55,238 bases of DNA from Ornithinibacter sp. (GTDB taxonomy: Bacteria > Actinomycetota > Actinomycetes > Actinomycetales > Dermatophilaceae), in assembly GCA_035702525.1 (NCBI GenBank), contig DASSQL010000367.1, forward strand, positions 1-55,238, in the 5' to 3' direction. The translations under genes were made by a program, and so were the position numbers. Under the pieces are notes generated by a model. That model was not told the DNA's origin and did not search any database. It worked only from the letters and a program-made list of their open reading frames with translations. The number at the start of each line of letters is the position of its first letter. Position 1 is the stretch's first letter. Positions 547 through 39,375 of this stretch are shown here, piece by piece.

Positions 547-553
547 CCCCGGC

Positions 554-1081
554 GTGCTGAGCGAGCTCACCCTGACCGTCATGCGGCTGGGGTTGCTGGT
601 GCTGATGTGGTTCTTCGTCTTCGCGGTGGTGGGCGTGCTCCGCGGCGACCTCTACGGCACCCGCGTCAAGCGCCGGTCCGCCGGCGGCGGCGGCAAGAAC
701 GGCAAGGCCGCCGCGCGCGGCGCCGCGCCCGCACCCCCCAGCGCCGCGCGGCCGGAGAAGAAGAACCGGGCCGCACGCGGCCGCAAGGGCCCCACCAAGC
801 TCACCGTCACGGCCGGGCCACTGGCCGGCACCACGCTGCCGCTGCGCCCTGCGGGCACCCTGATCGGCCGCAGCCCCGAGTGCGCCCTGGTGCTCGACGA
901 CGACTACGCGAGCGGCCGGCACGCGCGCATCTTCCAGGACGACGACGGCACGTGGAAGGTCGAGGACCTCCGCTCCACCAACGGCACCTTCCTCGGCGCG
1001 ACGCGCCTCACCGAGCCACGCGAGGTGGCGGTCGGCAGCGTGCTGCGGATCGGCCAGACCGTCGTGGAGCTGCAGAGGTAA
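554..1081 (+). CDS. fhaB: FhaB/FipA membrane-anchored FHA-domain protein
   Basis: N-terminal TM helix (LGLLVLMWFFVFAVVGVL), FHA motifs IGR, SGRHA, DLRSTNGT; synteny. Confidence 0.9.
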   Translation: MLSELTLTVMRLGLLVLMWFFVFAVVGVLRGDLYGTRVKRRSAGGGGKNGKAAARGAAPAPPSAARPEKKNRAARGRKGPTKLTVTAGPLAGTTLPLRPAGTLIGRSPECALVLDDDYASGRHARIFQDDDGTWKVEDLRSTNGTFLGATRLTEPREVAVGSVLRIGQTVVELQR

Positions 1082-1084
1082 CGG

Positions 1085-2509: not shown

Positions 2510-3888
2510 GCATCGTGTCGTCGTTCACGCCGAAGAAGGGCCGCAACGTCGAGCTGGCCCTCGTCGTCGGCGCCGTGGCCATCGTGCTGCTCGCCTACCT
2601 CAACGTCGAGCTCGCCGCCACGGGCACCATCCCACCCGGCACGCTCACCCTGGTCGGCGGCTACCTCGCGCTGGCCATCGGCTTCCACCTCGTGCTGCGC
2701 TGGCGGGCCTCGTACGCCGACCCGCTGATGCTGCCGATCATCACCCTGCTCAACGGCCTGGGCCTGGTGATGATCCACCGCATCGACATCGCGCACGGCA
2801 AGTCGATCGCCGACGGGGTGGCCCTGCGCCAGCTGATGTGGACCGCCGTCGCCATGGTCGTCGCGGCGGTCGTGCTCGTCGTGCTGCGCGACCACCGGGT
2901 GCTGCGGCGCTACACCTACCTCGCCGGCGCCATCGGGTTCGGCCTCCTGCTGCTGCCGCTGCTCCCGGTCATCGGCACGTCGATCTACGGCTCGCGGATC
3001 TGGATCCAGATCGGCCCGTTCTCGTTCCAGCCCGGTGAGATCGCCAAGATCGCGCTCGCCATCTTCTTCGCCGGGTACCTCGTGCAGACCCGCGACGCGC
3101 TGTCCGTCGCCGGGCGCAAGGTGCTCGGCCTCACCCTGCCCCGGGCCCGCGACCTCGGCCCGATCCTCGTCGCCTGGCTGGCCAGCCTGGCCGTGCTGAT
3201 CTTCGAGCGCGACCTCGGCTCCTCGCTGCTGTTCTTCGGCCTGTTCGTCGCGATGCTCTACGTCGCCACCGAGCGGGTGTCCTGGATCGTCATCGGCATG
3301 ACGCTGTTCTGCGTCGGCGCCTACGTCGCCTACCTCGCCTTCGGCCACGTGCAGACCCGCGTGCTGCTCTGGCTCGACACGTTCAGCCCGGAGGCGCTGC
3401 AGGCCTCCGACCAGCTCGCCAAGGGCCTGATGGGGATGGCGTCCGGCGGCATGTTCGGCACCGGCCTGGGCCGGGGGCGCCCCGACCTCACCTACTTCGC
3501 GGAGTCCGACTTCATCATCCCGAGCTTCGGCGAGGAGATCGGGCTGATCGGCCTGTTCGCGATCTTCATGCTCTACGCCCTGCTGGTGCAGCGGGGCCTG
3601 CGCACCTCGCTCGGCACCCGTGACGGGTTCGGCAAGCTGCTCGCGGCCGGCCTGTCCTTCTCCGTGGCGCTGCAGTGCTTCGTCGTCGTCGGCGGCGTCA
3701 CCCGGGTCATCCCGCTCACCGGCCTGACCATGCCGTTCCTGTCGTCCGGCGGCTCCTCGCTGCTCGCGAACTGGACGCTGGTCGCCATCCTGCTGCGCAT
3801 CTCCGACCACGCCCGCCGCCCGCTCCCCGAGGTGAACGCGCCCAGCGCCGTCGCGGAGGCCCGCACCGAGGTGGTGAGGCTGCGATGA
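2506..3888 (+). CDS. rodA: FtsW/RodA/SpoVE family SEDS glycosyltransferase
   Basis: Start trimmed to ATG 2506 (ATGA overlap with pstP stop). FQPGEIAK, DLGS, ESDFI, PLTGLTMPFLSSGGSSL motifs; many TM helices. Confidence 0.95.
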   Translation: MSIVSSFTPKKGRNVELALVVGAVAIVLLAYLNVELAATGTIPPGTLTLVGGYLALAIGFHLVLRWRASYADPLMLPIITLLNGLGLVMIHRIDIAHGKSIADGVALRQLMWTAVAMVVAAVVLVVLRDHRVLRRYTYLAGAIGFGLLLLPLLPVIGTSIYGSRIWIQIGPFSFQPGEIAKIALAIFFAGYLVQTRDALSVAGRKVLGLTLPRARDLGPILVAWLASLAVLIFERDLGSSLLFFGLFVAMLYVATERVSWIVIGMTLFCVGAYVAYLAFGHVQTRVLLWLDTFSPEALQASDQLAKGLMGMASGGMFGTGLGRGRPDLTYFAESDFIIPSFGEEIGLIGLFAIFMLYALLVQRGLRTSLGTRDGFGKLLAAGLSFSVALQCFVVVGGVTRVIPLTGLTMPFLSSGGSSLLANWTLVAILLRISDHARRPLPEVNAPSAVAEARTEVVRLR

Positions 3889-5336
3889 ACGCCCCCGTCC
3901 GCCGCCTCTCGATCGTCGTGGCCGTGCTGTTCGCCTCGCTCCTGGTGTCGACCACGCTCATCCAGTACGTCTTCGCGGCCGACCTCAACGCCCGCCCCGA
4001 CAACCGCCGAACCCTGCTGTCGACCTTCGCCCGCGAGCGCGGCGAGATCCTCGTCGGCCAGACCGCCGTCGCCAAGTCGGTGCCGGTCGACGACGAGTAC
4101 AAGTACCAGCGGGTCTACGACGAGGGCAAGCTCTACGCCCACGTCACCGGCTCCTACTCGTTCTTCGGGGCCTCCGGCGGCCTCGAGCAGGCCGAGAACT
4201 CGCTGCTGTCCGGGTCGAGCGACAAGCTGTTCTACCGTCGGGTGTCCGACCTGTTCACCGGGCGGCGCGCGCAGGGCGCCAACGTCGAGACCACCCTCGA
4301 CCCCAAGGTGCAGGCGGCCGCCGCCGACGGCCTCAAGGGCATCAAGGGTGCCGCGGTGGCGCTCGACCCGAAGAGCGGCGCGATCCTGGCGATGGTCAGC
4401 AACCCCACGTACGACCCCAACGACCTCGCCAGCCACGACCTGCGCGAGGTCGAGAAGAACTCCACCGCGCTGAACAAGGACCCCGGCAAGCCGCTGCTCA
4501 ACCGCTCGATCAACGAGCTGTACCCGCCGGGCTCGGTCTTCAAGGTCGTCACGGCGGCCGCGGCGCTGTCGACGGGCGAGTACACCGAGAACTCGGTGCT
4601 CCCCGGCCCGGCGGTGCTCGACCTGCCCGACACCTCGGCCGACCTGCCCAACCACGACGACCGGGCCTGCTCGCCCAGCGGTGAGGTCACGATGACCGAG
4701 GCGCTGGCGGTGTCGTGCAACACGGCCTTCGCCTACCTCGGGATGCAGATCGGTGCCGACGCGCTGCAGTCGCAGGCCGCGAAGTTCGGCTTCGGCGACG
4801 CCCTCTCGGTACCGATGCGGGTCACCCCCAGCAGCGTCCCCGGCGAGCTGAACAAGCCGCAGCTGGCGCAGAGCTCGATCGGCCAGTACGACGTGCAGGT
4901 GACCCCGCTGCAGATGGCGATGGTCGCCTCCGGGGTCGCCAACCGCGGTGTCGTCATGAAGCCCTACCTCGTGGAGTCGGTCATCGGCTCCGACCTGTCG
5001 GTCATCGAGTCGGCCGACCCGCAGGAGCTCTCGCAGGCGGTGACCCCCGAGGTCGCCGCGCAGCTCACCCGGATGATGGAGGCCGTCGTCGAGGACGGCA
5101 CCGGCACCAAGGCCCAGATCGACGGCGTCGCCGTCGCGGGTAAGACCGGCACCGCGCAGCACGGCGAGGGCCGCAAGGCGCACGCCTGGTTCATCTCGTT
5201 CGCCCCGGCGAACGACCCGAAGATCGCGGTCGCCGTCATCGCCGAGGACGGCGGTGTCGCGGGTAGCGAAGCCGGCGGCGGCACGGTCGCAGCCCCGATC
5301 GCCAAGCAGATGATGGAAGCACGGTTGAACCGATGA
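3885..5336 (+). CDS. pbpA: Class B penicillin-binding protein PbpA
   Basis: Start ATG 3885 (ATGA overlap). Transpeptidase motifs SVFK (SxxK), SCN (SxN), KTG. Confidence 0.95.
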   Translation: MNAPVRRLSIVVAVLFASLLVSTTLIQYVFAADLNARPDNRRTLLSTFARERGEILVGQTAVAKSVPVDDEYKYQRVYDEGKLYAHVTGSYSFFGASGGLEQAENSLLSGSSDKLFYRRVSDLFTGRRAQGANVETTLDPKVQAAAADGLKGIKGAAVALDPKSGAILAMVSNPTYDPNDLASHDLREVEKNSTALNKDPGKPLLNRSINELYPPGSVFKVVTAAAALSTGEYTENSVLPGPAVLDLPDTSADLPNHDDRACSPSGEVTMTEALAVSCNTAFAYLGMQIGADALQSQAAKFGFGDALSVPMRVTPSSVPGELNKPQLAQSSIGQYDVQVTPLQMAMVASGVANRGVVMKPYLVESVIGSDLSVIESADPQELSQAVTPEVAAQLTRMMEAVVEDGTGTKAQIDGVAVAGKTGTAQHGEGRKAHAWFISFAPANDPKIAVAVIAEDGGVAGSEAGGGTVAAPIAKQMMEARLNR

Positions 5337-5348
5337 GGAGAGCACAGC

Positions 5349-7169
<1,821 letters not shown>

Positions 7170-7182
7170 CGACCACGCCGGG

Positions 7183-7839
7183 TCAGCCGGCGGCGACCAT
7201 CCGGGCGACGCCGGCGGCGTCGTGCACGAGCGGGCTCAGGCCCGCCGAGCGGGCGACGGCATCCGGCATCCCGCACAGCTGGAGCCAGTTGGCGAGCATC
7301 CGGTGGCCGCCGTGGGTGAGCACCGACTCCGGGTGGAACTGCACGCCGTGCAGCGGCAGGCTCGCGTGCCGCACGGCCATGATGATGCCGCTCTCGGTGC
7401 GGCCGTTGGCCAGCAGCTTTTCGGGCAGCGTGGCCGGCTCGATGGTCAGGGAGTGGTAGCGGGTCGCGGTGAACGGGTCGGGCGCGCCCTCGAGCACCCC
7501 GGTGCCGTCGTGGTGCACCTGCGAGGTCTTGCCGTGCAGCAGCTCGGGCGCCCGCCCCACGGTCGCGCCGAGCACGACCCCGAGCGCCTGGTGGCCGAGG
7601 CACACCCCGAGCATCGGCTGCTCCCGCTCGGCGCACGCCTCGATCATCGCCATCGAGACCCCGGCCTCCTCGGGCGTGCCGGGGCCGGGTGACACGAGCA
7701 CCCCGTCGAACTCGGCACCGTCGGCCGGGGCGACCGCGTCGTTGCGCACGACCTCGCACTCGGCGCCGAGCTGCTCGAGGTAGCCGACGATCGTGAAGAC
7801 GAAGCTGTCGTAGTTGTCGACGACGAGGATGCGGGTCAT
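7183..7839 (-). CDS. trpG: Aminodeoxychorismate/anthranilate synthase component II (class I glutamine amidotransferase)
   Basis: DNYDSF, SPGPG, GVCLGHQ, RYHSL, GVQFHPE; conserved position convergent on pknB. Confidence 0.95.
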   Translation of the reverse strand: MTRILVVDNYDSFVFTIVGYLEQLGAECEVVRNDAVAPADGAEFDGVLVSPGPGTPEEAGVSMAMIEACAEREQPMLGVCLGHQALGVVLGATVGRAPELLHGKTSQVHHDGTGVLEGAPDPFTATRYHSLTIEPATLPEKLLANGRTESGIIMAVRHASLPLHGVQFHPESVLTHGGHRMLANWLQLCGMPDAVARSAGLSPLVHDAAGVARMVAAG

Positions 7840-7863
7840 GGCGTCAATGGTGCACCGTCGCCG

Positions 7864-8022
7864 TCACGGGCCGACGGTCGAGTCCGTGAACGGCAGCAGC
7901 GGGCTCACCGCCGGGAACACCCAGGTGAAGCAGACGGCCACGACGAGCAGGGCCAACACGAGGCACTGCACGGCCTTGACCCAGCGCGGGCCGGGCAGGT
8001 GGCGCCACAACGCGGCATACAC
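7864..8022 (-). CDS. Small 52-aa membrane protein (MYAALWRHLPGPRWVKAVQCLVLALLVVAVCFTWVFPAVSPLLPFTDSTVGP)
   Basis: Translated by hand: GTG at 8022, TGA at 7864-7866. One hydrophobic helix; fills the gap between sortase and trpG. Not in the ORF track (under 60 aa). Confidence 0.8.
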   Translation of the reverse strand: MYAALWRHLPGPRWVKAVQCLVLALLVVAVCFTWVFPAVSPLLPFTDSTVGP

Positions 8023-8025
8023 GGG

Positions 8026-8712
8026 TCAGCCCTTCGTCGGGGGAGTGAGCCAGCGGGACGGCACCCACTGGGCGCGCGGGATCGCCTCGACCAGGCGGCC
8101 GTGCACGACGAACCGCTGGGTGGCGCTGTACTTCGGGTGGCACGACGTCATCGTGATCAGCGCCTCGGTGGGGGTGCCCTTCGGGTCGCCGGGCACGGGG
8201 TCGATGACCTCGACGTCGCCGGGGCGCACGATCTCGCGCGAGGTCACCTCGTAGACGTACACCTCGGCCGCGGTCTCGACGACCACCCGGTCGCCGTCGA
8301 CGAGCTGGTCGACGTCGTGGAAGGGACGCCCGTAGGTGGTGCGGTGCCCGGCGACAGCGAAGTTGCCGACCTGCCCCGGCCCCGCCGTGCCGACGTAGTG
8401 TCCGACGCCCAGGGCCAGCACGGGGCGGCCGGTTCCCTCGATGACCGGGCGCACGAAGTCGCTCCCGAAGCGCGGGATGCGCACGACCGCGAACGCGCCG
8501 TCCTTGCCGATCGCGGCGGGGATGCCGTTGTCGCCCACTGGTCCCGGGGTACCGCGGGCGAAGTCGTCCTCGAGGGTCTGCACGATCTGGGCCTGGGCCC
8601 GGTCGGCGACGACGTCGGTCCACCACAGCTGCCAGGCGGCGAAGAGCAGCAGCAGCACGCCCAAGGTCACGAGCAGCTCGCCGGACCAGCCGACGACGCG
8701 GCGCACCCTCAC
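8026..8712 (-). CDS. Class E sortase
   Basis: N-terminal TM; GNFAVAGHR (His), ITMTSCHPKYS (TLxTC-like Cys) and downstream Arg. Confidence 0.9.
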   Translation of the reverse strand: MRVRRVVGWSGELLVTLGVLLLLFAAWQLWWTDVVADRAQAQIVQTLEDDFARGTPGPVGDNGIPAAIGKDGAFAVVRIPRFGSDFVRPVIEGTGRPVLALGVGHYVGTAGPGQVGNFAVAGHRTTYGRPFHDVDQLVDGDRVVVETAAEVYVYEVTSREIVRPGDVEVIDPVPGDPKGTPTEALITMTSCHPKYSATQRFVVHGRLVEAIPRAQWVPSRWLTPPTKG

Positions 8713-9470
8713 GAGGCGGGGACTACGGCGTGCTCCGGCACGATCGAGCCGCTGTAGGCCGGGAAGGTCTGCTGCCCGACGTTCTTCACGTCGTAGCCGA
8801 GCCCGACCGCGATCGACCAGTCACGCAGGTTGGCGACGGCCGGGTCGGTGTCGAGCGAGGCCCGCATGGCGTCACGGTCACCGATCGCGGTGATGACGTA
8901 GGGCGGTGAGTACACCCGCCCCTGCAGGATGAGGGTGTTGCCGACGCACCGCACGGCGCTGGTCGAGACCACCCGCTGGTCCTGGAGCATCATCGCCTCG
9001 GCGCCGCCCTTCCACAGCGCGTTGACGACCGACTGCACGTCCTGCTGGTGGATGACGTAGTCGTCGGGGTCGGCGCCGGCCGGCACCTCGCCCCCGGCGA
9101 GCTTGGCGTCGTCGAGGGTGACCCGCAGCGCCGGGCCGCGCACCCCGGTGCGGCCGGCCGCGGTGGCGATCTCGTTGGCCTGGCGCTCGAGCTTCTGGGT
9201 CTGCAGGTCGCCCGGGGCGAGCGCCGCGGTGGCCTCGTCGACCTGGCCCTGCAGGTCGTTGAGGTCGGAGGCCCGCGTCTCGTTGGTGCGGTTCTGGGCC
9301 CGGATCAGGTCGGGCAGCTGCGCCTGGTCGGTGCGCAGGTCCTCGCCCTGCGAGGCACGCACGCTGGAGGCGAACAGGGTGCCGGCGACGAGCGCCGCGA
9401 CGGGCACCAGCCAGGGCCACGGGGAGGGACGGTTCACCCGTCCCGCGTGTGTGCCGGCCACCGTGACCAC
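8709..9470 (-). CDS. DUF881 family membrane protein
   Basis: GPALRVTLDDA, HQQDVQSVVNALWKGGAEAM, RCVGNT, YSPPYVITAIGD; divergent from crgA. Start uncertain. Confidence 0.85.
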   Translation of the reverse strand: MVTVAGTHAGRVNRPSPWPWLVPVAALVAGTLFASSVRASQGEDLRTDQAQLPDLIRAQNRTNETRASDLNDLQGQVDEATAALAPGDLQTQKLERQANEIATAAGRTGVRGPALRVTLDDAKLAGGEVPAGADPDDYVIHQQDVQSVVNALWKGGAEAMMLQDQRVVSTSAVRCVGNTLILQGRVYSPPYVITAIGDRDAMRASLDTDPAVANLRDWSIAVGLGYDVKNVGQQTFPAYSGSIVPEHAVVPAS

Positions 9471-9532
9471 CTCCGTTCCTCTGACACCGTCTACGCTAGG
9501 CCAACACCATCAACGCCACGAGGAGACCGTTC

Positions 9533-9784
9533 GTGCCCGAGTCAAAGGGTCGCTCCAAACCCGCATACACCCCGCCGCGCACGGCGCAGAAGAACACGAC
9601 GCCGAACGCGCGCTGGTTCGTGCCCGTCATGCTCGGCCTCATGGTGGTCGGCCTGCTCTGGGTCGTCACCTACTACATCTCCGGTTCCGCCCAGTACCCG
9701 GTGCCCGCCCTGGGCCGGTGGAACCTCGGTGTCGGCTTCGGCCTGATGCTCTCCGGCTTCCTGATGACCACCCGCTGGCGCTGA
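9533..9784 (+). CDS. crgA: Cell division protein CrgA
   Basis: MPESKGR start, two TM helices, WN motif, ends MTTRWR; RBS GAGGAG upstream. Confidence 0.95.
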   Translation: MPESKGRSKPAYTPPRTAQKNTTPNARWFVPVMLGLMVVGLLWVVTYYISGSAQYPVPALGRWNLGVGFGLMLSGFLMTTRWR

Positions 9785-9804
9785 GCGAGCGTCCCACCCC
9801 GAAG

Positions 9805-9857
9805 TTATCCACAGGGGTTGTCCCCACTGGGGATGAATGACACGCGTGTAATCCACA
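9805..9857. promoter_or_regulatory. Cluster of four DnaA boxes
   Basis: TTATCCACA (9805-9813, perfect), TTGTCCCCA (9818-9826), TCATCCCCA on minus strand (9828-9836), TAATCCACA (9849-9857), all within an 83-bp convergent intergenic gap. Confidence 0.8.
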
Positions 9858-9867
9858 GCCCCGGGCC

Positions 9868-10767
9868 TCAGCCGGCCAGGGCGTACTTCCCGAGGGTCAG
9901 CACGACGAGCACGATGAGGATGCCGCCCATCGAGACCCAGTGCACCCGGGTGTCGGGTGCGGGCTCCAGCGGGCCCCGGTTCCGGCCGGTGTAGGCGATC
10001 GCCGCGGCCACGGCCGCCCCGGTGAGCAGCCCACCGAGGTGGGCCTGCCAGGCGATGCCCGGGATGACGAACCCGATGACGGCGTTGACGCCGATGATCA
10101 CGTACATGCCGGCCGACGACCGGCCGAGCCGGCGCTGCAGCACGAGGAACGCCCCGAACAGGCCGAACACGGCGCCGGAGGCACCCACCGCACCGGTGCG
10201 CCACATCCCGTAGTTACCGCCGGCGGCGTCGGCCACCGTCGTCGGCACCGAGAGCAGCAGGTACATGACCGAGCCGCCGAGGGCGCTGAGCAGGTAGATG
10301 GCGACGAACCGGGCCCGCCCGAGCATCGGCTCGAGGTAGCTGCCCATGACCCACAGCGCGTACATGTTGAACGCGATGTGGGTGATGCCGCCGTGGGCGA
10401 AGGCCGAGGTGAGGAAGCGCCACGGCTCGGACCGGCCCAGGATCGGCACGAAGGCGATCGTGTCCTGCAGGCCCGGCACGACGTACTGCGCGACGAAGAC
10501 CACCAGGCAGATGCCGATCAGGGTCATCGTCGCGACGGGTCGCCCGTCGGTGACCGAGCCGCCGAAGACGGTGCGCGCCTGGCGCACCGTCTTCGCGCCC
10601 TCGGCCACGCAGTCGACGCACTGGATGCCGACCGCGGCCGGCCGCTGGCACTCCGGGCAGGTCGGCCTCATGCACCGCTGGCAGCGCACGTACGACTCTC
10701 GGTCGGGGTGCCGCGGGCACACGGGAACCGGCGCGACGGCATCCGGGTAGGACGGTTGCTCACTCAC
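9868..10767 (-). CDS. Rhomboid family intramembrane serine protease with N-terminal Cys/His zinc-finger-like domain
   Basis: CPRHP...CQRC...CPEC...CVDC; WR, HIAFN, GASG (catalytic Ser), AHLGG (catalytic His). Confidence 0.92.
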   Translation of the reverse strand: MSEQPSYPDAVAPVPVCPRHPDRESYVRCQRCMRPTCPECQRPAAVGIQCVDCVAEGAKTVRQARTVFGGSVTDGRPVATMTLIGICLVVFVAQYVVPGLQDTIAFVPILGRSEPWRFLTSAFAHGGITHIAFNMYALWVMGSYLEPMLGRARFVAIYLLSALGGSVMYLLLSVPTTVADAAGGNYGMWRTGAVGASGAVFGLFGAFLVLQRRLGRSSAGMYVIIGVNAVIGFVIPGIAWQAHLGGLLTGAAVAAAIAYTGRNRGPLEPAPDTRVHWVSMGGILIVLVVLTLGKYALAG

Positions 10768-30733: not shown

Positions 30734-31810
30734 ATGCACTCCTTCGAGCACGACACCGGCGCGTCGCGGACCGTCTTCGGCGCGGGCACCGTGTCGCGGG
30801 TGCGCGACGAGCTGACCCGGGTGGGGGGCCGGCACGCCCTGGTGCTGTCGACCCCGGGCCAGCGGCGTCTCGCCGAGCAGGTGGCCACCGTGCTCGGCAA
30901 CGCCGGCGCAGGCGTGTTCGACGGCGCCGCCCCCCACACCCCGGTCGAGGTGACCGAGGCCGCCCTCGCCCGGGTCCGGGAGGTGGGCGCCGACTCGGTG
31001 GTGTCGATCGGCGGCGGCTCGACGACCGGGCTCGGCAAGGCGCTCGCCGCCCGCACCGGCATGCCGCACCTGGTGGTGCCCACGACCTACGCCGGCTCCG
31101 AGGTCACCTCGCTGCTCGGTGAGACCGCCGACGGCGAGAAGGTGACCCGAACCGGCCCGGAGATCCTGCCGCGGGTGGTCGTCTACGACGTGGCCCTCAC
31201 CACCACGCTGCCGTGGTCCGTCACCGTCACCAGCGCGGTGAACGCGATGGCCCACACGGTCGAGGCCCTCTACGCGGCCGACCGCACCGCCGAGTCCGAT
31301 GCGATGGCCGTCGAGGGGCTGGGCGCCCTGGCCGGCGGGCTGAGGTCGCTCCAGCACGAGCCCGACGACCTCGACGCGCGCGCCGACCTGCTCTACGGGG
31401 CGTGGCTGGCCGGGCGGTGCCTCGAGGCCGTCGGCATGGGGCTGCACCACAAGCTCTGCCACACCCTCGGCGGCAGCTTCGGCCTCCCGCACGCCGCCAC
31501 CCACACCGTGGTCCTTCCCCATGCCATGGCCTACAACGCACCGGCGGCGCCCGATGCCATGAGCGCCGCCGCCGCGGCCCTCGGGGTCGACGACGCCCCC
31601 TCCGGGCTGCAGGCGCTGGTCGCCCGGCTCGGCGGGCCGACCGACCTGCACCACCTCGGGTTCGCCCTCGGCGACGTGCCACGGGCCGCCGACCTGGCCA
31701 CCGCCCGCCCCTACCCCAACCCCAGACCGGTCCGGCGCGACGGCATCGTCGAGCTGCTCACCCACGCGACCGACGGCACCACCATCCACTCGACGAAGGA
31801 GAACCGATGA
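30734..31810 (+). CDS. Maleylacetate reductase (iron-containing alcohol dehydrogenase family)
   Basis: Start ATG 30734 with RBS GAGG. GGGSTTGLGKA, PTTYAGSE, NAMAH, MGLHHKLCHTLGG, PHAATH, PYPNPR. Confidence 0.88.
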   Translation: MHSFEHDTGASRTVFGAGTVSRVRDELTRVGGRHALVLSTPGQRRLAEQVATVLGNAGAGVFDGAAPHTPVEVTEAALARVREVGADSVVSIGGGSTTGLGKALAARTGMPHLVVPTTYAGSEVTSLLGETADGEKVTRTGPEILPRVVVYDVALTTTLPWSVTVTSAVNAMAHTVEALYAADRTAESDAMAVEGLGALAGGLRSLQHEPDDLDARADLLYGAWLAGRCLEAVGMGLHHKLCHTLGGSFGLPHAATHTVVLPHAMAYNAPAAPDAMSAAAAALGVDDAPSGLQALVARLGGPTDLHHLGFALGDVPRAADLATARPYPNPRPVRRDGIVELLTHATDGTTIHSTKENR

Positions 31811-32319
31811 CCACGCCCGACCCGTCCACCCCCACCCCGGCCGAGCTCGAGGCCCGCCGGGCGGAGATCCGCGCGGCCCACCTGCGCCCCACCGGGTCCC
31901 GGCCCGCCTCCACCGCCCGCGGGCTGCACCACACCGCCTTGATCAGCGGCGACGTCGAGCGCACCGTGCGCTTCTACCAGGACGTGCTCGGGTTCCCCCT
32001 GACCGAGCTGATCGAGAACCGCGACTACCCCGGCTCGTCGCACTTCTTCTTCGACATCGGCAACTCCAACCTGCTCGCGTTCTTCGACTTCCCCGGGCTC
32101 GACGTCGGGCCCTACGCCGAGGTGTTCGGGGGCCTGCACCACATGGCGATCTCGGTGGAGCCGGAGCGCTGGCACGCCCTGGTCGACCGGCTCGCCGAGG
32201 CCGGGGTCGAGCACGAGGTCCACAGCGGGGTGTCGGTCTACTTCCGCGACCCCGACGGCGCGCGCATCGAGCTCATCGCCGACCCGCTCGGCGAGATGTA
32301 CGGCAACCAGGTGCTCTAG
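31807..32319 (+). CDS. VOC (glyoxalase/dioxygenase) family protein
   Basis: ATGA overlap with the upstream gene; GLHHTAL, FYQDVLG, GLHHMAI, YFRDPDGARIEL. Confidence 0.9.
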   Translation: MTTPDPSTPTPAELEARRAEIRAAHLRPTGSRPASTARGLHHTALISGDVERTVRFYQDVLGFPLTELIENRDYPGSSHFFFDIGNSNLLAFFDFPGLDVGPYAEVFGGLHHMAISVEPERWHALVDRLAEAGVEHEVHSGVSVYFRDPDGARIELIADPLGEMYGNQVL

Positions 32320-32945
32320 GCCGAGGGCGCGCCGTCGGCGGCGGCCTCCGCGTCGGCCTCGACGAAGCCGCGGTGCAGTGCGTACAGCGCCTCGGTGAGC
32401 AGCTGGCGGTCGGTGCTGCGCGGCCGGGCGTGCCGGTGCAGCGCGAGCCCGTCGAGCAGCGCCACCACCATCGGCGCCCGCTCGTCGGCGTGGGCGATGC
32501 CCAGCGCCACCAGCGACGCCTCGGCACCCCGCTCGATGCTCGCCATGATCCGGTGGGCCGTGGGCTGCAGCTGCGGGCGGCGGCGGCACTCCAGGTAGAT
32601 CTCGAACTGCGCCACCGTGTCGGGTTCCGGCTCGGACATCACCGCGTCGACGAACCGGTCGATGGCCTCGCGGGGCCCCAGCTCGGCCTCGGCGACCTGG
32701 GCCGTGACGGCATCCACGCGTTGGACGATGCGCTCGCCCACCACGTGCAGCGCGGCGGCGACGAGCTGGTCGAGCGAGGAGAAGAAGTAGCTCGTCGTCG
32801 ACGTCGACATCCCGGCCCGCGCCGCGATCGCCCGGTGGGTCACCCCCGCGACGCCCTGCTCGGCGATGACCTCGACCGCGGCGTCGAGGAGGGCGGCCCG
32901 GCGCGCGCGGCCACTGGCCCGGTGGGTGGCTGGCCTGATCGACAT
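32316..32945 (-). CDS. TetR family transcriptional regulator
   Basis: Start trimmed to ATG 32945. RRAALLDAAVEVIAEQGVAGVTHRAIAARAGMSTSTTSYFF helix-turn-helix. Confidence 0.92.
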   Translation of the reverse strand: MSIRPATHRASGRARRAALLDAAVEVIAEQGVAGVTHRAIAARAGMSTSTTSYFFSSLDQLVAAALHVVGERIVQRVDAVTAQVAEAELGPREAIDRFVDAVMSEPEPDTVAQFEIYLECRRRPQLQPTAHRIMASIERGAEASLVALGIAHADERAPMVVALLDGLALHRHARPRSTDRQLLTEALYALHRGFVEADAEAAADGAPSA

Positions 32946-32962
32946 GACCCGAGTGTGCCAAG

Positions 32963-32984
32963 AGTCTGGACATTCGTCCAGACT
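32963..32984. promoter_or_regulatory. Putative TetR operator in divergent promoter region
   Basis: AGTCTGGAC-ATTC-GTCCAGACT perfect 9-bp inverted repeat, extended by GTGCCA/TGGCAC (32955-32993). Confidence 0.75.
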
Positions 32985-33038
32985 TGCTGGCACCCTTGGA
33001 CCGGGCAGGCCCGCCCGCACCACCTCAGGAGGCACCCC

Positions 33039-35318
33039 GTGGAGCACCTCTCCGCCCGCCAGCACGTCATCGACATGTGTCGCACGATGCTCGAGCGCGG
33101 CTACCTCAAGGCCACCGAGGGCAACGTCTCGGTGCGGGTGCCCGGTCGCCGCCTCTACGCCGTGACCCCCAGCAACTACTCGTACGACCGGATGCGCGTC
33201 GAGGACGTCTGCATCGTCGACTTCGACGGCAAGCACGTGCCCGACGACGACCGGCCCGGTGCCGCCCTGGCGCCCTCGATCGAGTGCGGCATGCACGCCA
33301 ACATCTACCGTGCCCGCCCGGACGTGCACGCGATCGTGCACACCCACCAGCCCTACGCCTCGGCCCTGGCGGTGCTGCGCCGCCCGATCCCCGCGCTCAC
33401 CGACGAACAGGTGCGCTTCCTCGGGCGTGAGGTCGCGGTCATCGACTACGCGCCGTCGGGCACCGGCTTCCTGGCCAGGAACGTGCAGAAGAAGATCACC
33501 AGCGGCGACAACGCGTTCATCCTCGCCAACCACGGCATCGTCGCCGTCGGAACCGACCCCGAGCGCGCCGTGTTCAACATGGCCCTGCTCGAGAAGGTGT
33601 CGATCGCCTACCTGCTGGCGCTGACCACCGAGTCGGGCAAGGTCTACACGATCCCCACCCCGATCCGTGAGATCGCCTTCGCCAAGCTGCGCAAGGACGA
33701 GAAGCGCATCGCCGCCCAGATCACCAAGTCCGTTCCCGTGGAACGAGTTCCGGATGCCGTGCCGCTCCCCAGCGCGGACGCGGCGGCCAGCGCCGTGGTG
33801 GCCGAGCGCGCGGCCTTCGCCGTGGCCGAGCCCGTCGTGCCGGCCGAGGCACCCGGTGCCGAGTCGGCCCGGCTCGGCTACGCGATCAGCAGCTACCCCG
33901 ACGTCGAGGCCACCATGGAGCGCCTGCGCGCCCTGGTCGACCAGCCGGTGCGCGGCCTGCGGCACGACGCCCTCAACGACGTGCTCGAGTGGTTCGAGAC
34001 CAAGTGCCAGGGCAGCAAGCAGCTCACCGACCGCGCGAAGTCGCGCATCCCGGGCGGGGTGCAGCACAACCTGGCCTTCAACCACCCGTTCCCGCTCGCG
34101 ATCGACCGCGCCGACGGCGCGCACCTCACCGACCGCGACGGGAACGTCTACATCGACTTCCTCCAGGCCGGCGGCCCGACCCTGCTCGGCAGCAACTACG
34201 CGCCGGTGAACGAGAAGGTCGCCGAGGTGGTGCGCGAGTCCGGGCCGGTCACCGGGCTCTTCCACGAGTACGAGCTCAAGCTGGCCGAGTCGATCCACCA
34301 CTACATGCCACACATCGAGATGTACCGCTCCCTCGGGTCGGGCACCGAGGCCGTGATGGCCGCCGTCCGCGCCGCGCGGGCGTTCACCGGCAACAAGGTC
34401 GTCATCAAGGTCGGCGGCGCGTACCACGGCTGGTCCGACACGCTCGTCTACGGCCTGCGGGTGCCGGGCACCTACCGGATGAACGCCAAGGGCATCCCGT
34501 TCGGAGCCACCAGCGCGACCCGGGAGGCCTTCCCGCACGACCTGGGCGCCCTGCGCCGCAAGCTCATCGAGAACCGGGTGCGCGGCGGTACCGCCGCCGT
34601 CGTGCTCGAGCCGCTCGGCCCCGAGTCGGGGACCCGCCCGGCGCCGGAGGACTACAACGCCCGGGTGCGCGAGCTGTGCGACGAGTTCGGCGCCCTGCTC
34701 GTCTTCGACGAGGTCGTGACCGGCTTCCGGGTCGGGATGGGCGGTGCCGCGGGCTACTTCGGCGTGACGCCCGACCTCACGGTGCTGGGCAAGGCCGTCT
34801 CGGGCGGTTACCCGATGGCCGGCGGCGTCGGCGGCCGCGAGGACGTCATGGCCGTGTTCGGCTCCGGCCTCGACGGCAAGAGTGGCGCGCACGTGCAGGT
34901 CGGCGGCACCCTGTCCGCCAACCCGCTCTCCTGCGCCGCCGGGTACTTCGCGATCGAGGAGATGGCCCGCACCAACGCCCCCGTCGTCGCGGGCCGCGCC
35001 GGTGACCGGCTGGCCGCCGGCCTGCAGCGGCTCGTCACGAAGCACGCCCTGCCGTACGTGGTCTACAACCAGGGCTCGATCGTCCACCTCGAGTGCAGCG
35101 GCGTGATGCTGCTCGACATGCACAACCCGGTCAAGCTCTTCAAGGAGAACAAGCCCCGCAAGCAGCTGATGGAGCAGATGGGTGCCGCCTACACGGCCAA
35201 CGGCATCATCACCCTGGCCGGCTCGCGGCTCTACACGTCGATGGCCGACACGGATGCCGTCATCGACGACGCGCTCGAGCGCTTCGACCGGGTCTTCTCG
35301 ATGGTCGACGGTGTCTGA
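33039..35318 (+). CDS. Fusion: class II aldolase (FucA-like) plus class III PLP aminotransferase (GSA-aminomutase-like)
   Basis: GTG 33039 with RBS AGGAGG; single 759-aa frame. N-domain: EGNVS, TPS, PSIE, HTH, LANHG. C-domain: SGTEA, GAYHG, LVFDEVVTGFR, DLTVLGK (PLP Lys), GTLSANP. Confidence 0.9.
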   Translation: MEHLSARQHVIDMCRTMLERGYLKATEGNVSVRVPGRRLYAVTPSNYSYDRMRVEDVCIVDFDGKHVPDDDRPGAALAPSIECGMHANIYRARPDVHAIVHTHQPYASALAVLRRPIPALTDEQVRFLGREVAVIDYAPSGTGFLARNVQKKITSGDNAFILANHGIVAVGTDPERAVFNMALLEKVSIAYLLALTTESGKVYTIPTPIREIAFAKLRKDEKRIAAQITKSVPVERVPDAVPLPSADAAASAVVAERAAFAVAEPVVPAEAPGAESARLGYAISSYPDVEATMERLRALVDQPVRGLRHDALNDVLEWFETKCQGSKQLTDRAKSRIPGGVQHNLAFNHPFPLAIDRADGAHLTDRDGNVYIDFLQAGGPTLLGSNYAPVNEKVAEVVRESGPVTGLFHEYELKLAESIHHYMPHIEMYRSLGSGTEAVMAAVRAARAFTGNKVVIKVGGAYHGWSDTLVYGLRVPGTYRMNAKGIPFGATSATREAFPHDLGALRRKLIENRVRGGTAAVVLEPLGPESGTRPAPEDYNARVRELCDEFGALLVFDEVVTGFRVGMGGAAGYFGVTPDLTVLGKAVSGGYPMAGGVGGREDVMAVFGSGLDGKSGAHVQVGGTLSANPLSCAAGYFAIEEMARTNAPVVAGRAGDRLAAGLQRLVTKHALPYVVYNQGSIVHLECSGVMLLDMHNPVKLFKENKPRKQLMEQMGAAYTANGIITLAGSRLYTSMADTDAVIDDALERFDRVFSMVDGV

Positions 35319-36552
35319 GCCCGCGCTGGGGCTGCCCCCCGCTCCGGTCCACCGGGTGCGCACCGCGCGCTGGGCCCTGCTCTTCGCCTTCGCCGCCCTC
35401 GTCGCGTCGACGCAGGTGCTCTGGCTGTCGTTCGCGCCGGTGACCACCCGCGCGGCCGAAGCGCTCGGTGTCTCCGAGGGTGCGATCGGCGACCTCGCCG
35501 TCGTCAACCCGGTGCTCTACGTGCTGCTCGCCATCCCGGCAGGCCGCTGGGCCGACCGCCGGTTCGGCATGGCCCTGTCCACCGGCGCTGCGCTCACCGC
35601 CGGGGGCGCGCTGCTGCGCGCGCTCAACCCCGACTCGTACGGGTGGGTGCTCGCGGGGCAGGTCGTGCTCTCGGTCGGCCAGCCGCTGGTGCTCAACGCG
35701 ACCACCAAGGTCGCGGCCCGCTGGTTCCCGGCGACCGAGCGCACCCGCGCGATCGCCGTCGGCAGCGGCGCCCAGTTCCTCGGCATCCTCGTCGCGGCGA
35801 CGACCGCGAGCGCCCTGATGGATGCCGGAGGCCTCTCGCTCCTGCTCGGGGTGCACGCCGCGTTCGCGGCCGTGGGCGCCGTCGCCCTCGTGGTCGCCCT
35901 CGCACTGGTGCCGCCCGCCTTCGCCCCGGATGCCGGGCCCGCACCGTCGCTGCGCTGGCTGCGGCACGACCGGCTCCTGCTCAAGCTCGCGGCCATGTTG
36001 TTCGTCGGGGTCGGCCTGTTCAACGCGCTGGCGACCTGGCTCGACCCGATCCTCGCCGACCTCGGCATGCCCAACGCCGGGGGCACCATCATCGCGACGA
36101 CGACCATCGCCGGCCTGGTCGGCACCGCCGTGCTGCCCGACCTCGCCGCGCGCCGGGACCGGCGCCGCACCGTGCTGCTCACCACGACCGTGCTCGCCGT
36201 CGTGGCCTTCCCGCTGGTCGCGGTGCTGCCGACCCTGTGGCTGGTCGCGGTCGCCCTCGCGGTCGTCGGGTTCTTCCTGCTGGCCGGCCTGCCCATCGCC
36301 CTGGACTGGTCCGAGCTCGAGGCCGGCCCGGAGCGGGCCGCCACGGCCACCGGCTTCCTGCTCCTGGCCGGCAACCTCGGTGGCGCGGTGCTCGTGCTCG
36401 CCGTGCAGGTCGTCGTCGGCAACCCGTACCTGGCCCTGGGGGCGTTCGCGCTCCTCGCCCTGCCCGGCGTGCTCGTCGCGAGCCGGCTGCCCTCGCACGG
36501 CGGGTCGCACCGTGACGACGAGTCCGCCGCCTCGCGGGACGCGGCCGGATGA
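35311..36552 (+). CDS. MFS transporter
   Basis: GTG 35311 overlaps the upstream stop; about 12 TM helices, motif A GRWADRRFG, WFPATERT. Confidence 0.9.
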   Translation: MSEPALGLPPAPVHRVRTARWALLFAFAALVASTQVLWLSFAPVTTRAAEALGVSEGAIGDLAVVNPVLYVLLAIPAGRWADRRFGMALSTGAALTAGGALLRALNPDSYGWVLAGQVVLSVGQPLVLNATTKVAARWFPATERTRAIAVGSGAQFLGILVAATTASALMDAGGLSLLLGVHAAFAAVGAVALVVALALVPPAFAPDAGPAPSLRWLRHDRLLLKLAAMLFVGVGLFNALATWLDPILADLGMPNAGGTIIATTTIAGLVGTAVLPDLAARRDRRRTVLLTTTVLAVVAFPLVAVLPTLWLVAVALAVVGFFLLAGLPIALDWSELEAGPERAATATGFLLLAGNLGGAVLVLAVQVVVGNPYLALGAFALLALPGVLVASRLPSHGGSHRDDESAASRDAAG

Positions 36553-38153
36553 GCGGGTTCGTCCTCGGCGTCGACCTCGGCACCGGGGGCCCCCGGGTCG
36601 CGCTCGCCGGTACCGACGGGGTGCTCGTCGGCCACGAGAAGGAGACCGTCGAGCTGCGGCTGCTCCCGGGCGGGGGGGCCGAGCAGGACCCCGATGACTG
36701 GTGGCGAGCGATCCTGACGGCGAGCGGGCGCCTGCGCGAACGGCATCCGGCTGAGTACGCGCGGGTGGCGGCCATCTGCATGAGCAGCCAGTGGGGCGGC
36801 CTGGTGCCGGTCGACGCCGACGGCCGGCCCGTGCACCCGGCCCTGACCTGGATGGATGCGCGCGGCGCCCGGTACTCGCAGGAGCTCACCGGCGGTGGCC
36901 TGCGGGTGCCCGGGGGCTACAACGCACGGGCGCTGCGGCACTGGCTGTCGAGGACGGGCGGGGTGCCCACCCGCACCGGTAAGGACCCGGTGGGGCAGGC
37001 GGCCTGGCTGCGCCACGAGCGCCCGGAGGTCGATGCCGCCGCGGTGTGGCTGCTCGACGTGCCCGAGTACCTCACCATGCGGCTGACCGGTCGCGCCGTC
37101 GCCGGCTGGGACACCGCCGTGCTGCGCTGGTGCACCGACAACCGTGACCCCTCCGCCGTCGTCTGGGACCCGGCCCTGGCGCAGCGCTGCGGGCTCGACG
37201 TGCGCCGGCTGCCCGAGCTGGTGCGCCCCGCGAGCGTGGTGGGCACCGTGCTGCCGGCGGTCGCCGCCGACCTGGGCCTGCCCGACGGGGTGCGCGTCGT
37301 CGCCGGCACCGGCGACACGACCGCCGCAGCCGTGGGGGCCGGTGCCACCGAGGAGTACGACGCGCACCTCTACGTCGGCACCTCGGCGTGGCTCAGCTGC
37401 CACGTGCCGTTCAAGCGCACCGACATCGTGCACAACATCGCCTCGCTGCCCTCGGTCGTGCCCGGCACGTACTGGGTCGCCACCGTGCAGGACGTCGCGG
37501 GCAAGGCCGTCGACTGGCTGCTCGACTCGGTGGTCTACGCCCAGGACGGCATGCTCGAGGCCGCACCCCGTCCGGCCGACGCGCTCGACCGGCTCAACGC
37601 GCTCGCCGCGAGCGCACCACCGGGCTGCAACGGGGTCGTGTTCACGCCGTGGCTCAACGGCGAGCGCACCCCCGTCGACGACCCCACCGTGCGCGGCGGC
37701 TGGTTCAACGTGTCACTGTCGACCACCCGGGCCGACCTCGCGCGCAGTGTCTTCGAGGGCATCGCGCTCAACACCCGCTGGATGCTCGAGGTGGTGGAGG
37801 GGTTCACCAGGCGCGGTGCGCCGGCGGGGCTCTCGTCGCTGCGGTTCATCGGCGGCGGCGCGAGCTCGGCGCTGTGGTGCCAGACCATGGCCGACGTCCT
37901 GCAGGTGCCGGTGCGCCAGGTCGCCGACCCCGTCGTGGCCAACGCCCGCGGGGCCGCGCTGATCGCGGCGATCGGGGTGGGCGAGCTGGACTGGGCCGAC
38001 GTGCCCTCCCGGGTGGAGATCGCGGCCACGTACACCCCCGACCCGGCGGCCCGGGCGGTGCACGACCGGCAGTACGCCGCGTTCCGTGACATCTACCGCC
38101 GCACCCACGGCCTGTACGCCCGCCACAACGCGGGGCGCGGCGACGCCGACTGA
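36549..38153 (+). CDS. FGGY-family carbohydrate kinase (xylulokinase-like)
   Basis: ATGA overlap; GVDLGTGG, EQDP, TWMDAR, GTGD, VGTS, PWLNGERTP, FEGIA, IGGGA...WCQTMADV. Confidence 0.92.
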   Translation: MSGFVLGVDLGTGGPRVALAGTDGVLVGHEKETVELRLLPGGGAEQDPDDWWRAILTASGRLRERHPAEYARVAAICMSSQWGGLVPVDADGRPVHPALTWMDARGARYSQELTGGGLRVPGGYNARALRHWLSRTGGVPTRTGKDPVGQAAWLRHERPEVDAAAVWLLDVPEYLTMRLTGRAVAGWDTAVLRWCTDNRDPSAVVWDPALAQRCGLDVRRLPELVRPASVVGTVLPAVAADLGLPDGVRVVAGTGDTTAAAVGAGATEEYDAHLYVGTSAWLSCHVPFKRTDIVHNIASLPSVVPGTYWVATVQDVAGKAVDWLLDSVVYAQDGMLEAAPRPADALDRLNALAASAPPGCNGVVFTPWLNGERTPVDDPTVRGGWFNVSLSTTRADLARSVFEGIALNTRWMLEVVEGFTRRGAPAGLSSLRFIGGGASSALWCQTMADVLQVPVRQVADPVVANARGAALIAAIGVGELDWADVPSRVEIAATYTPDPAARAVHDRQYAAFRDIYRRTHGLYARHNAGRGDAD

Positions 38154-38220
38154 GAGAGGACCTGGAGGCCGCCCGACCGCCTCTAAGGATTTCCACAGGT
38201 TGGCGGAGGACGATACAGAG

Positions 38221-39375
38221 ATGGCCCTCATGCAGCGGGCCCGCAGGGGTTCCATGGTCGCCGCGGCCGCGCTCGTGGTGGCGGGGCTGTCGTGCGCCCC
38301 TGAGGCCTGGGCCACCGATGCCCCGCGACCGGGTGCGACCCCGTCGCCCACCGGCAGCACCCCTTCGAGCACCCCCGGCCCGACGGTGCCCAGTGCCGCC
38401 GAGGTCGCGAAGGCGAAGGCCGCCGCCGCGGCGGTGGCCAAGGAGGTCGCCGACATCACGGCACAGGTGGCGAAGGCCGAGGCCCGGCTCGAGGTGCTGC
38501 AGCGCGGCGTGGCCGATGCCGTGACGGCGCAGGAGGAGGCGCAGCGGCAGCTGGCCGCCGCCGAGGCGTCGCTGCTGCGCGCGACCGCGAACCTCGCGAC
38601 GGCCCAGCTGGTGCGCGCGAACGCCGACCGCTCGCTCTCCGCGACGGCCGCCCAGCTGTACATGCAGGGCAGCGACCTGCAGGACCTGACCACCCTGGTG
38701 CTCGCCCCACCCAACGTGATGTCCGACCTCGCGATGGTGATGGACCGCAACGCGCACCGGGTGCGCGACGACCTCGACGCCGCCACGTCGGCGGCGCAGG
38801 ACGCCGCCACCCAGGAGCGGCTGCTCGGCGATGCCCGCGATGCCCGCGACCTCGCGGCCACGGAGGCGCTCGGCACGCTCGACGCCGCGAAGAAGGAGGC
38901 CGACCTGGCGGGCGCGGAGGCAGCCACCCTCGGGCAGAAGCAGGAGGAGCTGACCGCGCGGCTGGTCGTGCTCGAGCAGGGCGCCGCCGACCTCGAGGGG
39001 CTGCGCGAGGCTGCTGCGCGACTCGGCAGCACCGGTCTGGTCGGGGTGCAGGCGTCCGGGGGCGCACCCCGGGCCGCCCAGGAGATCGCCCGCCTGAAGA
39101 TGGCGTCCTACGGCTGGGACGCGGGGGAGTTCACCTGCCTCGTCGGGCTCTGGAACGCCGAGTCGGGGTGGAGCTGGAGTGCCACCAACCCGTCGTCGGG
39201 GGCGTACGGCATCCCGCAGGCGCTGCCCGGCTGGAAGATGGCGAGCGCGGGCAGCGACTGGCTCACCAACCCGGCCACCCAGATCAGCTGGGGGATGGGC
39301 TACATCCGGTCGGTGTACGGCTCGCCGTGCAAGGCCTATGAGCGGTTCCGCTCCCGGTCGCCGCACTGGTACTGA
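38221..39375 (+). CDS. Secreted coiled-coil protein with C-terminal lytic transglycosylase (SLT-like) domain
   Basis: Signal peptide, long Ala-rich coiled coil, LWNAESGW (catalytic Glu), NPSSGAYGIPQALP, NPATQISWG, C-terminal WY. Confidence 0.85.
   Translation: MALMQRARRGSMVAAAALVVAGLSCAPEAWATDAPRPGATPSPTGSTPSSTPGPTVPSAAEVAKAKAAAAAVAKEVADITAQVAKAEARLEVLQRGVADAVTAQEEAQRQLAAAEASLLRATANLATAQLVRANADRSLSATAAQLYMQGSDLQDLTTLVLAPPNVMSDLAMVMDRNAHRVRDDLDAATSAAQDAATQERLLGDARDARDLAATEALGTLDAAKKEADLAGAEAATLGQKQEELTARLVVLEQGAADLEGLREAAARLGSTGLVGVQASGGAPRAAQEIARLKMASYGWDAGEFTCLVGLWNAESGWSWSATNPSSGAYGIPQALPGWKMASAGSDWLTNPATQISWGMGYIRSVYGSPCKAYERFRSRSPHWY

Follow-up and report, generated by a model that had tools for sequence, protein, structure and literature searches.

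The operon at positions 32316-38153 of contig DASSQL010000367.1 from Ornithinibacter sp. (a stretch of 55,238 nucleotides (nt), referred to here as the window) raises the question of what supplies a ketose to an FGGY kinase and a class II aldolase in an operon in which no isomerase gene was found. An earlier note on this DNA had reported three overlapping genes divergent from a TetR-family gene with a palindrome, had remarked on the absent isomerase, and had proposed that a transaminase replaces it. We confirmed the gene anatomy, the palindrome, and the lack of an isomerase gene, and the proposed replacement is supported by the finding that a non-homologous amine/carbonyl oxidoreductase takes the place of the transaminase elsewhere. 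The operon belongs to none of the Fuc, Xyl, Ara, or Hem systems and constitutes a conserved, apparently undescribed module that is probably catabolic. Its probable function is a generic scheme of amine to ketose to ketose-1-phosphate, followed by aldol cleavage, in the catabolic direction. The best single candidate for the substrate is the sphingoid-type compound phytosphingosine, a tentative choice that is nearly as likely to hold as to fail.

Gene organization of the operon

The first gene (33039..35318, plus strand) is a single open reading frame (ORF) of 759 amino acids (aa) starting at GTG 33039, in which an aldolase module of the FucA type (aa 1-226, 33039..33716, plus strand, with PF00596 at aa ~8-188 and a C-terminal helix at aa 207-226) is joined by a linker to an aminotransferase module (PF00202; aa ~289-759, 33903..35318, plus strand). 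It is followed head to tail on the same strand by genes encoding a transporter of the major facilitator superfamily (MFS; 35311..36552, 413 aa, start inferred) and an FGGY kinase (36549..38153, 534 aa), with overlaps of 8 nt between the fusion and MFS genes and 4 nt between the MFS and kinase genes. The gene for the TetR-family regulator (32316..32945, minus strand, 209 aa), carrying PF00440 (TetR_N) and PF17940 (TetR_C_31), is divergent from the operon.

An assembly error as the origin of the fusion was rejected, as the aldolase is encoded in the same stretch in 77 of the 77 actinobacterial genome loci taken from the best 80 of 179 relatives. Additionally, a contig from a soil sequencing run, which is either independent of the assembly or its source, crosses the linker (33603-33970) with zero differences. 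The stretch is also present in soil and rhizosphere sequencing runs, and contigs from RNA runs are 90-95% alike to it.

Identity of the aldolase, aminotransferase, and kinase

Residues N29, T43, S80, E82, H101, H103, and H165 of the aldolase module align with the catalytic set of FucA and DrdA, which consists of three metal-binding His, the catalytic Glu, and Asn/Thr/Ser at the phosphate site. By this alignment, the module is a protein of the class II aldolase/adducin fold with intact catalytic residues, and its nearest solved relatives are FucA (4C24) and DrdA (6BTD). Identification as L-fuculose-1-phosphate aldolase (FucA) itself was not supported, as the module scored below the cutoffs of the FucA models (87 vs. 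400 bits for TIGR01086 and 115 vs. 264 bits for a second model) and no isomerase was found in the loci. AraD was discarded as well, given the catalytic Glu of the module in place of the Asp of AraD; the araB-D-A-like operon of this genome is located on another contig (C386), and the AraD-like protein encoded there has Asp. A segment that reads His-Tyr-Met in FucA is Asp-Glu-Gln in the window aldolase.

The Asp-Glu-Gln motif and C-terminal helix of the single window aldolase also occur in degenerate aldolase-fold units without metal ligands (L109:13402-14049 and the second halves of gut aldolases, L110:10604-11503), the catalytic partner units of which have neither. The degenerate and catalytic units could possibly form a hetero-oligomer in which the former provides the part of the active site that faces the aldehyde.

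The second module is, by its domain match, a class III aminotransferase dependent on pyridoxal 5'-phosphate (PLP): it scored 165.7 bits against PF00202 (cutoff, 30.5 bits), and the PLP residues D557 (Asp) and K585 (Lys) are conserved. The nearest characterized fold and sequence family is that of HemL, the glutamate-1-semialdehyde (GSA) aminomutase (PDB 4E77, E 1e-62), and the top Foldseek matches were D-phenylglycine aminotransferase and HemL; the structure model of the fusion is mediocre, with a predicted local distance difference test (pLDDT) score of 71.4 and active-site loops <50. Identity with HemL was rejected, as the scores were below the model cutoffs (248.6 vs. 527.3 bits for TIGR00713 and 268.3 vs. 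398 bits for NF000818), the N-terminal Ser/Arg motif of HemL is replaced by a His/Leu-type motif in the window protein and its family, and the canonical hemL of this genome lies on another contig (C52) beside a hemB-like gene. The Ser/Arg motif, itself visible in the PDB alignments, is presumably the binder of the substrate carboxylate; as judged from the top motif counts, this substrate-binding Arg motif was replaced in 319 of the 319 family sequences examined. The aminotransferase forms a subfamily of its own, which scores well above generic HemL-like proteins.

The kinase belongs to the FGGY family (PF00370 and PF02782), and its two catalytic Asp residues, D9 and D256, are invariant in 24 sequences. 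XylB is the best NCBIfam and fold match, with 25-27% identity and 250 vs. 380 bits for TIGR01312, and the XylB motifs Gln-x-His-Gly and Gly-Asp-Asn, which contact the sugar, are lost. In a quick tree of 46 rows, in which the placement of long-branch controls is unsure, the window kinase and 30 other cluster kinases formed a group separate from XylB, GlpK, and the remaining controls (Shimodaira-Hasegawa-like approximate likelihood ratio test, SH-aLRT, 99). Carriers of the module keep XylB elsewhere, beside xylose-isomerase-like genes, and an XylB-like locus is also found in this genome. The sub-cutoff score, lost motifs, separate clade, and XylB elsewhere led us to reject XylB as the identity of the kinase. 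The earlier note had held that a kinase for xylulose or ribulose or a GSA aminomutase would undo its proposal; at the sequence level, neither was borne out, the former by motif and tree and the latter by motif, cutoffs, and the separate hemL.

The lid of the kinase (aa 103-150, 36855..36998, plus strand) contains a basic amphipathic segment at aa 126-136, which is modeled as a helix in a good structure model (pLDDT 89.5). Compared with the lids of 24 controls, those of 148 cluster kinases are longer (44 vs. 37 aa) and more positively charged (+4.0 vs. -0.4) and have a higher moment (0.73 vs. 0.56).

Conservation and distribution of the module

The 77 actinobacterial loci, from Ornithinibacter-like genomes, Micromonosporaceae, Nocardioidaceae, Kineosporia, and Actinotalea, were analyzed together with 80 gut metagenome loci (the best 80 of 592 found with a Butyrivibrio protein), and genes within 5 kb of the aminotransferase were counted as neighbors. 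The loci are redundant within lineages, and the counts therefore overstate independence. All 77 actinobacterial loci encode the fusion, 72 the kinase, 61 a divergent PucR-type regulator, 21 the MFS transporter, and 15 a TetR of the window type. Because of these counts, the core of the module is the aminotransferase, aldolase, and kinase, with TetR and the MFS transporter as lineage accessories. Among the metagenome loci, we found the aldolase in 55, TetR in 52, the kinase in 48, a GtrA-type gene encoding a small membrane protein with four transmembrane segments in 42, an aldehyde dehydrogenase (ALDH) in 4, and the MFS family of the window in none. Where full flanks were available, the kinase is adjacent in 36/52 loci and no kinase is adjacent in 16/52.

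The module is carried patchily, in 3/121 genomes of the host family, 14/401 of the phylum, and 21/151 of Micromonosporaceae. Unfused versions are located on plasmids of Burkholderia ambifaria (TetR, kinase, aldolase, aminotransferase, a degenerate second aldolase, a short-chain dehydrogenase/reductase, and ALDH) and Butyrivibrio fibrisolvens (kinase, aldolase, GtrA, and aminotransferase). Members of the aminotransferase subfamily were identified in Leptonema, Leptospira (four species), Duganella, Chitinimonas, Mesorhizobium, Oscillibacter, and Streptomyces, the protein of Leptonema illini being 67% identical to that of the window, and aminotransferases of ~44% identity occur in Syntrophales, Smithellaceae, Desulfobacterales, and Helarchaeales. 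The three enzymes are linked across phyla, which removes the concern of the earlier note that the genes might not co-occur in other genomes. Thirty-five loci on viral contigs, all generic HemL-like at 28-38%, were left out.

Several loci depart from the common arrangement. Two Kineosporia loci (L035 and L066) have the fusion and PucR genes with no adjacent kinase, followed by AHSA1/START-like and old-yellow-enzyme genes. An aminotransferase of the subfamily with 49% identity lies inside a nonribosomal peptide synthetase/polyketide synthase (NRPS/PKS) cluster with DUF6002 (L334:2913-19998). Pyruvate-formate-lyase-like glycyl radical enzymes are encoded near the kinase or aminotransferase at L387:4500-7457 and L104:16541-18901, the former carrying an N-terminal extension of ~200 aa.

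Variants in the amine and cleavage positions

The best evidence for the function of the aminotransferase comes from loci in which its position is filled by another enzyme. In 17 of 19 loci, a kinase of this clade has a saccharopine-dehydrogenase-like gene (PF03435/PF16653) next to it. These loci include genomes in which no window-type aminotransferase was found (0 of 24 in family f31), where the saccharopine-dehydrogenase-like gene precedes the kinase gene, behind a TetR gene. Because two unrelated amine/carbonyl enzyme families occupy this position, we infer from context that it makes the ketone for the kinase and aldolase, replacing an isomerase.

The cleavage position also varies. In Geothermincolia-like and related genomes, a RuBisCO-like protein is encoded after the kinase instead of an aldolase (L093, L099, and L101). 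This protein is near-universal in the Geothermincolia-like class (48/51 genomes), and it was rejected as an obligatory partner of a second aminotransferase subfamily (48/51 vs. 21/51 genomes).

In uncultured Actinomycetota (L365:3477-8852, L366, L386-L388, L393, and L394), TetR, the saccharopine-dehydrogenase-like protein, a kinase of the clade, and the RuBisCO-like protein are encoded in one operon, followed in some cases by an acetoacetate-decarboxylase-family gene. At other loci (L356, L359, L360, L389, and L390), a saccharopine-dehydrogenase-like gene and a kinase paralogue lie beside genes for corrinoid proteins, URO-D/MtaA-type methyltransferases, DUF1638, and B12 radical SAM proteins, which suggests a methylated amino-polyol as the substrate at these corrinoid-methyltransferase loci.

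Proposed pathway and substrate

In the proposed pathway, the aminotransferase would convert the C2 amino group of a 2-amino-1,3,4-triol with a hydrophobic tail, most likely phytosphingosine, into a keto group, C1 of the 2-keto product would be phosphorylated by the kinase, and the aldolase would cut between C3 and C4 to yield dihydroxyacetone phosphate (DHAP) and a long-chain aldehyde (pentadecanal for t18:0). The aldehyde would then pass to a class 3 ALDH or a reductase; the gene for such an enzyme is adjacent in some lineages and lies elsewhere or is missing here. Perhaps the pathway serves detoxification as much as nutrition. We infer the order of these reactions, their catabolic direction, and the substrate as follows.

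A FucA-type aldolase needs a C1-phosphate, a C2-ketone, and a 3R,4R diol, and the starting compound would therefore be a 2-amino-1,3,4-triol. Phytosphingosine is a common natural 2-amino-1,3,4-triol with a hydrophobic tail and has the D-ribo configuration. Given this configuration, 2-keto-phytosphingosine 1-phosphate would be the 5-alkyl analogue of the DrdA substrate, which in the available text of PMC6079011 is 3R,4R 5-deoxyribulose-1-phosphate. According to the available part of PMC3136697, the class III enzyme FumI turns the C2 amine of a sphinganine-like aminopentol into a 2-ketone.

The class 3 ALDHs and lipid-type neighbors of the module fit a hydrophobic aldehyde. Further hints of a hydrophobic substrate or product are the long, basic, amphipathic lid of the kinase, its loss of the XylB sugar-contact motifs, and the gut loci, which have the GtrA-type gene (42/80) and not the MFS family of the window (0/80). 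In a search covering 183 loci, every neighboring ALDH was of class 3 (7/183 loci, about four lineages); these enzymes match human fatty aldehyde dehydrogenase (4QGK, E 1e-111 and 3e-94), and their lactaldehyde-dehydrogenase scores are weak. A DFR/GRE2-like reductase is common to the Marmoricola and Burkholderia loci (58% identity). At L092/L338:185-7915, two homologues of endoglycoceramidase (E 1e-115 and 5e-43) are encoded in the same stretch as a RuBisCO-like protein, an alpha/beta hydrolase, and an aminotransferase with 65% identity to that of the window. Other lipid-type neighbors were a weak GH5 match at L043 and a sub-cutoff PF04734 match 8 kb off in one gut lineage. Leptonema illini, the carrier of the 67% identical aminotransferase, uses long-chain fatty acids as a carbon and energy source, as stated in the available text of PMC3746420.

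A number of observations weigh against phytosphingosine. The ceramidase, ALDH, or beta-oxidation genes that the earlier note had suggested looking for are absent from the neighborhoods of the actinobacterial loci, with an ALDH within 5 kb in 0/77, and searches of this genome and four others yielded none of class 3 at E<=1e-60. The best NCBIfam model of the neighboring ALDHs is benzaldehyde dehydrogenase MdlD, and class 3 ALDHs accept aromatic aldehydes too. Endoglycoceramidase-like neighbors occur at only two distinct places in the 183 loci. Neutral ceramidase (PF04734) was found neither in this 84%-complete genome nor in any of 51 Geothermincolia-like genomes (0/51) nor in three of five tested carriers, the other two having weak matches in sugar-type clusters; among Micromonosporaceae, it was present in 3/21 carriers vs. 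5/130 non-carriers (Fisher p 0.08, with kin not independent). Sphingosine and sphinganine are without the C4 hydroxyl needed for the aldol cut. For part of the kinase clade, the saccharopine-dehydrogenase-like and corrinoid methyltransferase context hints that the substrates are N-substituted or methylated. The usual actinobacterial regulator is PucR (61/77) and not TetR (15/77), and the argument of the earlier note that TetR control points to a lipophilic ligand is thin because TetR and the MFS transporter are lineage accessories. This counter-evidence is compatible with action on free bases or with detoxification, but makes the choice of substrate tentative.

Ceramidase-like matches in two genomes (G424 and G425) were not counted, as they lie in sugar ATP-binding cassette (ABC) transporter/phosphotransferase system (PTS) clusters far from the operon. 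In Propionicimonas and Actinotalea, several ceramidase-fold paralogues accompany sugar ABC/PTS genes unrelated to the operon (L339:2002-9280 and L340:5993-9227).

Alternative explanations

The same chemistry could act on a small, water-soluble 2-amino-2-deoxy-alditol (a pentitol or hexitol of the D-ribulose/L-fuculose type at C3-C4), giving DHAP and glycolaldehyde or lactaldehyde. This is a doubtful but serious explanation, as it accounts equally well for the enzyme trio, the missing isomerase, and the likeness to FucA, a polar solute would need the MFS transporter present in the window operon, and the actinobacterial loci have neither lipid genes nearby nor a ceramidase link. Among 88 annotated proteins from recurrent neighbors (not every gene), however, no sugar ABC/PTS or LacI/DeoR proteins recur; in the gut loci, one lineage has a sugar MFS transporter ~9 kb off and another an ABC system ~5 kb off. 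The neighboring ALDHs also include no lactaldehyde- or glycolaldehyde-type dehydrogenase, the kinase lacks the hydroxyl contacts of XylB and has a basic, amphipathic lid, the aminotransferase is present in Leptonema, and we know of no abundant natural amino-alditol.

Another lipophilic, aryl, or N-substituted amino-polyol processed by the same three steps is unlikely; examples are the side chain of an aminohopanoid, an aminopolyol fragment of the fumonisin/AAL type, and an amino-triol that is methylated or N-alkylated. The distribution across gut, rumen, soil, and sediment calls for a common molecule, and removal of a terminal amine would yield an aldose, for which an isomerase is still required. 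Such a substrate would nevertheless suit the class 3 ALDH and DFR/GRE2-like reductase neighbors, which fit any hydrophobic aldehyde, the several kinase paralogues per genome, and the saccharopine-dehydrogenase-like partners near corrinoid methyltransferases; saccharopine-dehydrogenase-like enzymes act on secondary amines.

A role for the aminotransferase downstream of aldol cleavage, on an amino-aldehyde from a terminal-amino ketose-1-phosphate by a logic like that of sulfoglycolysis, or as a phospho-lyase on a phosphorylated amino alcohol, is very unlikely. The class III fold does include amino-alcohol phospho-lyases, and the aldolase-aminotransferase fusion would channel a reactive aldehyde. 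However, these readings leave the source of the ketose unexplained, as no isomerase or polyol dehydrogenase recurs, and the kinase is accompanied by the aminotransferase or its substitute both where an aldolase is the third enzyme and where a RuBisCO-like protein is. A phospho-lyase would moreover strip the phosphate bound by the intact FucA-type site (N29, T43, and S80).

The least probable reading is a biosynthetic one, in which DHAP and an aldehyde are joined and aminated to an amino-triol (an iminosugar precursor or a sphingoid base made independently of serine palmitoyltransferase): aldolases and transaminases are reversible, an aminotransferase of 49% identity lies in the NRPS/PKS cluster (L334), and a phosphatase is found nearby in single loci (L110 and L354), but the fixed partner is a kinase (72/77) and not a phosphatase, neighboring ALDHs would drain the aldehyde, and a divergent repressor with a transporter is typical of catabolic loci.

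Comparison with known systems and significance

Disposal of sphingoid bases by sphingosine kinase, sphingosine-1-phosphate lyase, and ALDH3A2/Hfd1 converts the base to a fatty aldehyde, which is handled by a class 3 ALDH. Sphingosine-1-phosphate lyase cuts C2-C3 and releases phosphoethanolamine; in contrast, the route proposed here for phytosphingosine would deaminate first and cut C3-C4 to DHAP. Closer in logic are FucI-FucK-FucA for L-fucose/D-arabinose and DrdK-DrdI-DrdA for 5-deoxyribose, in which, as far as the available text of PMC6079011 describes them, a kinase and a metal-dependent class II aldolase likewise produce DHAP and an aldehyde from a 3R,4R ketose-1-phosphate. The Fuc and Drd systems use an isomerase, whereas the window operon has a PLP aminotransferase, and its relatives elsewhere an amine dehydrogenase-like enzyme, in its place; the window kinase is in a separate FGGY clade, and the aldolase is under all FucA cutoffs.

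Like the aminotransferase in its proposed role, FumI of Sphingopyxis sp. MTA144 (PDB 6HBS) is a class III PLP enzyme that acts on a long-chain aminopolyol and leaves a ketone in place of the C2 amine, but it is distant in sequence (E 1e-24, vs. 1e-62 for HemL). Its substrate is without a C1 hydroxyl, and the available part of PMC3136697 shows no kinase-aldolase follow-up. Pseudomonas SphBC also protects against phytosphingosine; it is an oxidoreductase/cytochrome pair, the product of which, like that of sphingosine metabolism in Pseudomonas, is given as unidentified in the available text of PMC11398299. The work accessible in part as PMC12134224 concerns PKS/oxoamine-synthase biosynthesis, unlike the window module. 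We found no description of this gene set in the literature on such a pathway or on bacterial sphingoid catabolism, most subscription papers and supplements being outside the search.

Sphingoid bases have antimicrobial activity and are widespread in plants, fungi, skin, and gut, and their disposal by bacteria is largely open. The operon offers a two-protein candidate route in soil actinomycetes, rumen/gut Firmicutes-like contigs, Burkholderia, and Leptospiraceae, by which, if true, the phytosphingosine head group would feed straight into glycolysis without a lyase. A widespread lyase-independent route of this kind into glycolysis, with modular variants that reach anaerobes and a RuBisCO-like protein acting on a lipid ketose-phosphate, is possible, although we hold this larger picture with some doubt. 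Whatever the substrate, the module brings to light a clade of FGGY kinases and a subfamily of aminotransferases, both undescribed, whose members are at present wrongly annotated as xylulokinase and GSA aminomutase, respectively. It also gives context for an unassigned group of RuBisCO-like proteins.

Control region, transporter, and neighboring genes

The 93-nt region between the TetR and fusion genes (32946-33038) holds a palindrome with 9-bp arms and a 4-nt spacer (32963..32984), and a Shine-Dalgarno-like site is located at 33027-33032, ahead of the fusion ORF. Arms of at least 9 bp were reached by 11 of 2000 dinucleotide shuffles, and the palindrome is the sole match at <=1 mismatch in the 3.7-Mb assembly. 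Of 15 close loci of the TetR type, 13 retain it while the flanks drift, and it is missing from all 10 PucR-type loci examined. Because of this pattern and its uniqueness in the assembly, the palindrome is likely the TetR operator; the TetR of the window type is limited to close relatives. A promoter scan of the region found no sigma-70 site, the one terminator-like site is at chance level, and repeats were dismissed as GC-rich noise.

The MFS transporter has TIGR00903 as its best NCBIfam model, under the cutoff, and matches only generic MFS names in Atlas. Its residues W38 and Q124 are invariant in seven cluster MFS transporters and may be counterparts of W125/Q214, the TM1 Trp and TM4 Gln of the FLVCR/SLC49 amino-alcohol transporters, as described in the available part of PMC11168923.

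Genes for an iron-containing alcohol dehydrogenase (ADH) and a glyoxalase/VOC protein (30734-32319) are convergent with the TetR gene, with overlapping stop codons, and show synteny in close relatives only; on the grounds of this orientation and distribution, they were rejected as part of the system. We take the iron-ADH gene upstream of TetR to be maleylacetate-reductase-like. Downstream of the operon, a secreted coiled-coil protein with no Pfam match (38086-39375) is encoded, as in 12 close loci, and its C-terminus is presumably transglycosylase-like. Near the start of the window (100-10767), the genes for FHA, PP2C, RodA, PBP, Ser/Thr kinase, sortase, CrgA, and rhomboid-like proteins lie in a row that we take to be characteristic of the origin region in actinobacteria.

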